Of a DNA stretch of 64,000 nt, positions 39,001-42,000 are shown piece by piece. Position numbers: made by a program. Source of the DNA: Rhynchopus sp. YZ270_cl-10 (lineage: Eukaryota); assembly GCA_964035575.1 (NCBI GenBank), contig OZ037843.1, positions 992,001-1,056,000 on the forward strand, in the 5' to 3' direction. Each line of letters starts with the position of its first letter. Position 1 is the stretch's first letter.

Positions 39001-42000
39001 CGTCGCCGATCAAAGAAAGGGGAGGGCGTGCCTGCGGTGCCTTCTGCTCGTATCGCGTCAGGTCTAACGTCAACACCACCGGTCTGTGTACCGGGAGGCA
39101 GCTCTCTTTCCAGACCACCACTTTGGAGATCGCGGGGGCAGCCACGTGGTTCGCCAGCACCAAGTCGATACGTCTGCCAGACGATGTGGAGGTATAGCAT
39201 GTGTTCTCTGCTGCCTTACCCAACTGCTGTGCGTAGGTATCTGCCGCATCAACCCATTTGCCGGAGGAGATGGCCGCTCGAATGGCTAGACTTTCGTTAG
39301 CCTCTACGTTGAAGTCTCCGGCAATGAACACCGGTATGTCCCCAAGGCTGGCTGCTTCTTCAAAGATGCCTGTCAGGAGTTGCTCCGTGCGGTCGCTGTC
39401 AGCACACACACCATAAAACGAGAACACAGAGATGTTACGTCCCCCGCTCCCATATGCCACCTGCGCATGCGTAAAGCGGCATTCGTTCCACGCTTGTTGG
39501 GCACATTGTGGCGGTACTGCTCTGGTCGGTATGTCAGCGCACGTCATGATCGCAACTCCACCATTCTGCGTGCGCGTGCGCAGAGGGTCTGATCCCTGGC
39601 TTCGTCTGCAAGGGGCACCAAAGAGAAGCTGCTTGGCACCATACCCCTTCACGTCGTTTGCTGCCCCCTTCATCTCTTCTTCTGTGAGGCGCACCTCCTG
39701 CAGAGCACAAACGTCCACATCCCACTCCCCCACCGCAGGGTGTGCCCTCAGAGACGTCACGTTTGCCGTGCCAAGCGACATGGTCGACGGACCCGGATGC
39801 TCCTCCACGTCTCCACATGTCAGCAGTGACCCCCTGCCCAAAAACGCCCCTCGTCGCCTCCCTCGACGCACCCTGTGTCCGACCCCTCGCCCCACCCCCC
39901 TTCGCGTTCTACCCTTACCCCTTGTCCCCGACAGCATACAGCCCGCAGAGCGCAAACGATGCTGACCCCTTGTTGGGGAGACAGTTTTCACAAAAACGTC
40001 TCGTTCTCCAACTACGCACGAAGAAGCCAATCCTGTGCCGTACCCTTCCACCGCACCACACCGTCACCGCCCCACATCGCGCAGGGTGTTGCGGCCTACC
40101 AACCTGTTGTCTAGTCCCTGGACGGGACGAAACGCGATCTCGATGACGTCCCCCGCTACCTTCACGACAGTCACCGGGATGGCTGCGCCGTTGCCTCCCT
40201 CCTCGCAGTACTCCATGGAGTCGCCAGCCTCCAGCACTGCGTTCCCGTACGACTCCTCGTTCTTCTCGTTCCCCTCCGCCTGCTCTTTTGCGGGGACTTC
40301 CGTCCGCATCCTGCGCGGCGGACTCAGCAGCGCCACCGTCTCACCGGACTCACTGCGGTCTTCCCGCTTGCCCGCCAGGGTCACGGCAGGTGGCGCCACC
40401 GGCACTCTGGGAGCTGGCGAGGTCTCCGCGTCCTCCTCGACAGCCGCACAGTCTGGCGATGTCTGCACCGGCAGTGCCATGTCGGCGTCGTCCATCCGTG
40501 CCTCGGCGTCTGGTGTCGTGGGTGCGGGGGTCCCTGCGCCGGCGTTCTCCCCTTGCTCCTGCTCACGTTGTGCCTGCACTGCTGCAGCACGTCTCTCCTT
40601 CTTTGCCGCCGCTTCTTCCTGTGCTGCCCGTAGTGCCTCCCGTCGTTTCTCAGCGGCCACAATGTTCCTGCGTTTCTTCTTCTTCTTCGGGGACGCCACC
40701 ACTACCTCCACATCACCGGCGCCAGCAACGTCCGCAGTCGGCGATGTGTCCCTGGGCGGTGCTGACCGCGACCGGTTCCGTGCTTCGGCGACTTCTACGA
40801 CTACCCCCGGCTTTCCACGGATGGTGTCAGCCCTCCTCCTCCTGCGGCGCGGGCTCAGCTCCTCAACCTCACTGGACCCATTTCCCGCACGTATCCGCTT
40901 ACCTGCCATCGTTGCGGGCTCCGGTGACATCACGTCCTCGGCATTCCCGTCTGGGAGTGTGTCCAACAATTCATCCGCCATCTGCATCTCGGGTGTTGTG
41001 GGCGCTGCAGTGGGCACTGCGACAGTCGGGGCCGTAGTAGCAGCAGCCTCCCCCTCGCGCTGCCTGGCGTTCTCAGCAGCAACTGCAGCAGCGGCGGCGG
41101 CGGCTTCCTCCTCCTGCTGCCAGAGGATTGCAGCAGCAGCGTCGGCTTCCTCACGCTGCTTGAGGACTGCAGCAGCGGCGGCCTTCTCCTCCTCCTCACG
41201 CTGCCTCAGGGCTGCAGCAGCAGCGGCCTTCACCTCCTCCTCGCGCTGCTTGAGGGCTGCAGCAGCGGCGGCCTTCGCCTCCTCCTCACGCTGCCTCAGG
41301 GCTGCAGCAGCAGCGGCCTTCACCTCCTCCTCGCGCTGCTTGAGGGCTGCGGCAGCGGCGACCTCCTCCTCCTGCCTCAGGGCTGCAGCAGCAGCGGCCT
41401 TCACCTCCTCCTCACGCTGCTTGAGGACTGCAGCAGCGGCGGCCTTCACCTCCTCCTCACGCTGCCTCAGGGCTGCAGCAGCAGCGGCCTTCACCTCCTC
41501 CTCACGCTGCCTCAGGGCTGCAGCAGCAGCGGCCTTCACCTCTTCCTCACGCTGCTTGAGGACTGCAGCAGCAGCGGCCTTCGCCTCCTCCTCACGCTGC
41601 CTCAGGGCTGCAGCGGCGGCGGCCTTCGCCTCCTCCTCCTCCTGCCTCAGGGCTGCAGCAGCAGCAGCGGCGTCCTCTCTCGCAGCAGCCGTGGCCTCCT
41701 TCGGCATGGAACAGAGCTTGCCCACTTGCTCCAGCATGGCCGCCATCCACACTTGCTGCTCCTTCCGTTGCTCCACCCGTTCTTCCCGCAACTGGGCCGT
41801 CAGCGACGCCACCGTCTCCTGCAGCAGGGTCTGGAGGCGCTCGCCCACCAGGCGGTCCAACCTCTCCTCCATCCGGCGCTCCAACTTTTTGTGTTTGTCA
41901 AGTGGACTGTCTGGTCACTTCTCAGTGACTGGCGGGTTGGCTGTGGTTGCCCTGTCACGACTTACCTGTGTACCTGTGTACCTGTGTACCTGTGTACCTG

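Follow-up and report, generated by a model that had tools for sequence, protein, structure and literature searches.

An APE-type non-LTR retrotransposon in a 64-kb stretch of DNA of Rhynchopus sp. YZ270_cl-10 (the window, below) carries ORF1 and ORF2 in one reading frame, separated by a single stop codon in the context UGA-CGG and by 74 open codons ahead of a 2A peptide that reads HPGP instead of NPGP. Both the H and the stop are family-wide, and an in-frame UGA-CGG is also present in a second subfamily. Judged from the sequence, there is about an even chance that ORF2p is made by readthrough of the UGA-CGG stop followed by StopGo at the 2A peptide. The wider reading, that of a LINE which couples ORF1 to ORF2 by UGA-CGG readthrough and then H-type StopGo, with low amounts of unfused ORF2p, an OTU-protease ORF1 and ubiquitin-like genes as target, is put forward with slightly less assurance, at just under even. 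Feature coordinates are collected in Table 1.

Table 1. Features of the Rhynchopus element and its flanks (positions in the window)
Feature	Position	Strand	Remark
Target-site duplication, 5' copy	41887..41905	-	19 bp, exact
3' part of ORF1	40064..41886	-	From residue 745 of full-length P0193
ORF1 stop TGA (40066-40064) followed by CGG	40061..40066	-	Same frame as ORF2; hexamer of the type II readthrough kind
Open linker, 74 codons	39842..40063	-	Arg/Gly-rich at its end; 2 stops in each of the other two frames
Predicted linker hairpin	39972..40012	-	Pair probabilities of the inner stem 0.63-0.97
Class A 2A/StopGo-like peptide, T2A type with HPGP	39788..39841	-	From sequence; skip predicted only
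H codon CAT at the N16 position	39797..39799	-	Family state
Predicted skip point	Between G (39793-39791) and P (39790-39788)	-	Prediction from sequence
ORF2 body after the 2A peptide	35057..39787	-	Pfam: APE ~39736-39110, RT ~38002-37352
3' UTR	34989..35056	-	Predicted hairpin ~35045-35003; no poly(A) tail
Target-site duplication, 3' copy	34970..34988	-	
Flanking tandem/MITE-like repeats	41963-42076, 30780-31041, 42170-42310, 45248-46394, 34468-34562		

The retrotransposon and its surroundings

The 2A peptide, the APE endonuclease and the reverse transcriptase (RT) are contained in a 1668-codon stop-to-stop frame (35057-40063, minus strand), with Pfam matches to Exo_endo_phos (PF03372, 39.6 bits with a cut-off of 24.5) and RVT_1 (PF00078, 70.3 bits). 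The C-terminus of ORF2 is rich in Cys and His, and the nearest solved structures are those of LINE-1 ORF2p and R2. The 6.9-kb insertion is flanked by an exact 19-bp duplication, and no terminal repeats appeared in a self-comparison of the window. The window copy is truncated at its 5' end, starting at residue 745 of P0193, and other copies reach further 5'. An Rfam scan of 39500-42600 returned 13 matches, none near the gathering score and no ribozyme among them. The ORF2 cluster counts 34 members, and the 15 of them that are listed lie on at least eight contigs. Copies are near-identical: P0020 differs by 5 substitutions in 1664 residues, and the last 330 residues of ORF1 by 0-1.

Elements of the ingi/L1Tc group are defined by a single ORF without ORF1 and by an RNase H after the RT. 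Here ORF1 sits inside the target duplication and no Pfam match to RNase H was obtained in ORF2, so that the element falls outside this definition; nor was a named L1Tc/ingi RT present among the matches listed in the searches for relatives. A Pr77 promoter with an HDV-like ribozyme also marks the 5' end of the group's elements, an end that is missing from the window copy.

The 3' part of ORF1 consists of a coiled Ala/Glu/Gln repeat, a basic tract and a small beta-rich C-terminal segment. The model of the latter is of low confidence (single-sequence prediction, mean pLDDT 52.9, three strands), and the Atlas matches of the ORF1 C-terminus were all below 0.9, some of them SH3-like. In other copies, full-length ORF1 carries an OTU protease domain (PF02338, 39.5 bits with a cut-off of 23.3) at residues ~140-256 of P0191-P0193. 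OTU domains have been found in Ginger and Helitron DNA transposons (PMC2836005), and one literature search gave no case in a LINE ORF1. Six copies, five full-length and one truncated (P0191, P0192, P0193, P0210, P0211 and P0014), are fused in frame to ubiquitin-like N-termini. These N-termini differ from each other while the junction, LTK-x-x-K, is the same, and the duplication at 41887-41905 of the window copy reads LTNTK in one frame. The common junction together with LTNTK makes it likely that the element prefers to insert into a family of ubiquitin-like genes of its host; no host ubiquitin-like gene is present within the 64-kb window. A segment RRTAAGG...CG before the likely start of ORF1 (P0191 ~73-115) resembles the residues before the 2A peptide in P0040 and P0053, and is possibly a conserved 5' nucleotide signature read as protein.

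Several other features were seen in the window. The insertion is flanked by an 8-bp tandem repeat (in two places, very deep in runs X1/X4) and by several palindromic MITE-like repeats. At 62253-63998 on the minus strand lies the 3' portion of another non-LTR family, which is related (~30% identity) and has RNase H. Overlapping ORFs with RT and tyrosine recombinase matches at 53634-57358 (minus strand), with split direct repeats at 53193-53565 and 57670-57916, look like a DIRS/Ngaro-like retrotransposon. Three membrane-anchored adenylate-cyclase-like ORFs were recognized by eye on the plus strand (13434-15539, 57970-60159 and 16203-18689), two of which are 82% alike in DNA.

The HPGP 2A peptide and its relatives

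When positions 39788-39841 are translated from the minus strand, the peptide is LGRGSLLTCGDVEEHPGP. The peptide T2A of Thosea asigna virus is printed as EGRGSLLTCGDVEENPGP in Table S1 of PMC12338488. The identity of 16 out of 18 residues given in the original prediction was borne out by this comparison; at the two mismatches the element has L in place of E (residue 1) and H in place of N. With the residue composition of the window, 1.4e-13 matches of at least 16/18 to T2A are expected by chance in its six frames, and the window holds no second motif of the T2A-like 2A kind. Relative to the class A core D(V/I)ExNPGP the peptide reads DVEEHPGP, with N>H as its single change. The core is preceded by GD and a hydrophobic stretch, in which GRGSLLTCG is the same as in T2A and PrV2A1. 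The final P is directly followed by STM, so that an ATG lies three codons past it (39781-39779); the APE domain begins 18 residues past this P, and the RT follows in the same frame.

T2A is widespread in vectors, and contamination with a laboratory vector that carries T2A, or a fault of the assembly, might be suspected behind such a motif. This is exceedingly improbable, as the motif is in frame with APE-RT, lies within the target duplication and has two residues unlike T2A; it also occurs in copies on other contigs, and runs X1, X3 and X4, from three studies, have it in their contigs. These independent copies rule out both kinds of artefact.

The copies were assessed from protein clusters and run contigs. 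EEHPGP is present in all three of the further stored copies in which the site is covered; HPGP is a natural variant, as had been proposed, and no private mutation of the window copy, which is ruled out by these copies and by the contigs of X1 and X4. In the contigs of these two deep runs no variant of the H codon is listed, and unitigs over 39748-39805 and 39777-40260 gave 0 other letters; run X3 spans 39000-40422 with one difference, located elsewhere than in the H codon, and runs X7 and X10 have no cover of 39730-40260. Since contigs lose rare variants, the lack of an N variant applies to the common copies, and rare N copies could escape.

The original prediction presented HPGP as unusual, but it is already published for L1Tc, where 20% of the copies have it, with reduced activity (PMC3708506). 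The activity of the L1Tc H-variant peptide is listed as 0.23 (Table S1, PMC12338488), and Rao et al. give four class A peptides with H (PMC12338488). By saturation mutagenesis, N16 substitutions were all <0.6 in P2A and F2A (bioRxiv 10.64898/2026.09.24.754024), whereas a natural viral StopGo with p16=H reaches >95% when left in its native context, and one with p14=H does so too (PMC12846837). Given this conflict between weak H in L1Tc, P2A and F2A and the highly active viral peptide, partial skipping by the HPGP peptide of the Rhynchopus element is possible, and is put no more firmly than that.

Among named organisms, the closest relatives come from Diplonema papillatum (41%), Sulcionema specki and Eupelagonema oceanica, which makes a diplonemid host probable. 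The D. papillatum element (KAJ9444445.1, P0002, 38 cluster members) has 41% ORF2 identity, with its 2A peptide in the same place and likewise 16/18 identical to T2A; in this peptide, residue 14 is H and residue 16 is N. H at position 14 is tolerated in P2A (0.85; bioRxiv 10.64898/2026.09.24.754024). In a further difference, its 2A peptide is preceded by ~315 open, repetitive codons (protein only); residues 1-315 of P0002 form ~25-residue imperfect repeats.

In total, 153 APE relatives were examined, namely the best 149 of 670 matches and 4 from another search. The N-terminus was lacking in 54, no motif was present in 44, and 55 showed a PG[PHL] motif just before APE, that is 55 of the 99 with a readable N-terminus. 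Within this same sample, 33 of the 55 motifs are NPGP and 10 are HPGP, one of the latter being the Rhynchopus family itself. The motifs before APE are of two types, GD(V/I) and GEA; many relatives (P0003, P0005, P0054, P0073 and others) have GEA-x-(N/H)PGP in the GD(V/I) slot, and some end in PGH or PGK. Apart from that of D. papillatum, GD-type motifs match T2A at 7-11 of 18 residues. A quick APE tree was computed without bootstrap from 79 rows, after 74 relatives had been removed for shortness. The row nearest to the Rhynchopus element in it is the D. papillatum element, without strong support. Two further GD-type HPGP rows stand on a separate branch, suggesting more than one origin of H.

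On the viral side, the GRGSL frame is common to T2A, EeV, two Providence virus peptides and 4 viral-contig matches. T2A, the EeV 2A and Providence virus 2A1/2A3 (Table S1, PMC12338488) share GRGSL-T-GDVE-PGP with the element, but have N where the element has H and precede capsid or replicase proteins. The exact T2A-type HPGP pattern gave 0 matches in viral contigs, and a relaxed pattern gave the 4 matches, all NPGP. The viral scan with an APE alignment resulted in 1 weak locus, and a metagenome scan for related loci in 8 loci from 598 pattern matches, none close to the Rhynchopus family. As a separate observation, a virus-like contig (L004, JAAOEH010000746.1, 2-5695) has a 1057-codon frame, then TGA CTA and 179 codons, with two in-frame T2A-like motifs ahead of a Peptidase_A21 capsid; this may be a viral type II stop ahead of a 2A, or chance.

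The likeness to T2A had been taken as a sign of convergence or of virus-retroelement exchange. No recent exchange has to be assumed, because the D. papillatum element reaches the same 16/18 with other substitutions at only 41% ORF2 identity, and because 2A-like motifs occupy the same slot across the clade. The likeness is most simply read as inherited within these retrotransposons, with selection acting on the peptide; its deeper source may be an old exchange or convergence with insect viruses.

An inherited relic with little or no skipping is another way to read the peptide, in which case ORF2p would be a fusion or start at the ATG at 39781. The presence of this ATG and the low values of all N16 substitutions in P2A and F2A agree with a relic, as does a screen that found high activity in only 43 of 580 2A candidates from retroelements (bioRxiv 10.64898/2026.09.24.754024). 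We consider it improbable nevertheless: 15 of the last 17 residues are common to the D. papillatum element despite the divergence of ORF2, the upstream part equals that of T2A and Providence virus 2A1, which are both active (Table S1, PMC12338488), and the viral p16=H peptide works. The near-identity of the family copies (0-5 substitutions) also indicates that the family spread recently with H.

The in-frame UGA-CGG stop and the translation of ORF2

The in-frame stop had been overlooked in the original prediction. Five of the six stored full-length ORF1 proteins end at it, the sixth being frameshifted earlier, so the TGA is no lesion of the window copy. A general reassignment of UGA was rejected, with 5 of 9 gene-like plus-strand ORFs ending at TGA (unvalidated gene models). 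VEEV and CTFV have UGACGG as their type II readthrough hexamer, with UGA CGG UGU in CTFV (PMC13517186), and the window copy also reads UGA CGG UGU. Across the window, 44 of 1980 TGA triplets have CGG or CTA directly after them; this context occurs at 0 of the 14 other long-ORF ends that were checked. The element carries the type II signature, a UGA with CGG or CUA after it and a downstream ORF in the same frame, and so does the second subfamily.

The second subfamily has a depth of 282 in X1 and 599 in X4, about a third of the depth. Its ORF1 gave no alignment at 80%, and none beyond 40039. Its loose end on the minus strand, read by hand, is TGA CGG in the same frame; the comparison is one of two subfamilies, with the stop context taken from one 30-letter loose end in two runs. 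Between the stop and the shared part there are 6 codons versus 8 in the window copy, and the codons differ on both sides of UGA-CGG. The linker shows 15 changes in 114 nt, with 108 nt in place of a 69-nt block, and both indels preserve the frame. At codon +5, where the window copy has GTG (40051-40049), the second subfamily has an in-frame ATG. ORF2 is apparently common to both subfamilies up to ~39805 (depths 792+282 versus 1061-1068); the H of the second subfamily is therefore no independent sign of selection.

If readthrough and StopGo operate as proposed, most ribosomes would terminate at UGA and yield ORF1p, and some would read through and translate the linker. At the HPGP peptide the chain would be released, and ORF2p would start from Pro. 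The pair would then hold the ORF2p:ORF1p ratio at a low level, with no second initiation and with ORF1 and ORF2 unfused; should H reduce skipping, minor amounts of the fusion would arise as well. Both components have precedents, since a 2A directly before APE is documented for L1Tc and other LINEs (PMC3708506) and readthrough of the ORF1 stop was proposed for Paramecium Group 3 LINEs (PMC5405496). The putative arrangement of readthrough plus 2A is known here from the Rhynchopus family alone.

Termination-reinitiation, the chief alternative, would account for ORF2 differently, with a restart at codon +5 (GTG/ATG) or at the ATG at 39937-39935 and with the 2A peptide trimming a short basic leader, as in L1Tc. 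The ATG/GTG lies in the same register in both subfamilies, and the frame-keeping indels downstream of codon +5 also fit. GTG is, on the other hand, a weak start codon, and the retention of UGA-CGG amid changed neighbouring codons is left unexplained; on balance we regard reinitiation as somewhat unlikely for this element. It is used by SART1 and LINE-1 (PMC5972666), and a short peptide precedes the 2A of L1Tc (PMC5814959).

The linker fold was also considered. Readthrough in VEEV and CTFV needs a downstream structure (PMC13517186). The type II stimulatory structure sits at ~+9 to +16, whereas the predicted linker hairpin is placed at +55 to +95, and the folding energy of the linker is not beyond that of shuffles (z -0.53 to +1.05). 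Six of the 8 listed linker differences fall at predicted unpaired positions, 3 of these in one tetraloop; the 8 are out of 15, the other 7 being near contig ends. Points against readthrough with StopGo are that the +5 ATG fits reinitiation equally, that the linker fold is ordinary and that N16H is weak in P2A/F2A and L1Tc.

ORF2 might also be translated from an mRNA of its own, formed by SL trans-splicing into the linker, with the start at ATG 39937. Such an mRNA would require neither CGG nor, from the stop to 39937, an open frame or an in-frame indel, and LINE proteins usually act on the RNA that encoded them. A pyrimidine run with AG is present near 40025-40011, but it is short. SL RNA genes and clusters of co-transcribed genes do occur in diplonemids (PMC10161547); trans-splicing is nonetheless quite unlikely as the source of ORF2p.

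Relation to known systems and significance

Like the Rhynchopus element, L1Tc/ingi of trypanosomes are non-LTR elements of the Euglenozoan type with a class A 2A directly before APE and natural HPGP (PMC3708506, PMC5814959). L1Tc is a single ORF with RNase H and no ORF1, in contrast to the element with its ORF1 and in-frame UGA-CGG upstream; H is a minority allele in L1Tc versus a family state here, and the upstream 2A residues are L-rich versus T2A-type. VEEV and CTFV (PMC13517186) likewise have UGA-CGG in frame with a downstream polymerase-type ORF, but the element is a LINE, has a 2A rather than a protease site downstream, and its downstream structure is not significant. In Paramecium Group 3 LINEs (PMC5405496) ORF1 and ORF2 also share one frame with readthrough proposed from sequence; these differ in host and clade, and no 2A is mentioned in the available part of that source. 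Sequential recoding, with StopGo and then a frameshift, is known in cardioviruses (PMC5009743).

The 2A before APE, the HPGP variant and a proposed LINE ORF1 readthrough are each already in print singly. No report of readthrough and 2A in series in a retrotransposon, or of a diplonemid 2A, was found in a literature search whose scope left out most subscription papers and Repbase.

The HPGP peptide alone adds a natural T2A/N16H pair, with the D. papillatum E14H sister beside it, for the question of why H works in a context-dependent manner. How ORF2 is translated in two-ORF LINEs is unsettled, reinitiation being the usual model. According to Odon et al., 2A peptides are linked mostly to elements without ORF1 (PMC3708506). 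An element that keeps ORF1 and combines a readthrough-type stop with a 2A peptide would, if this is true, represent a third solution to ORF2 translation, and a plausible middle step between the two-ORF and the one-ORF-plus-2A designs.
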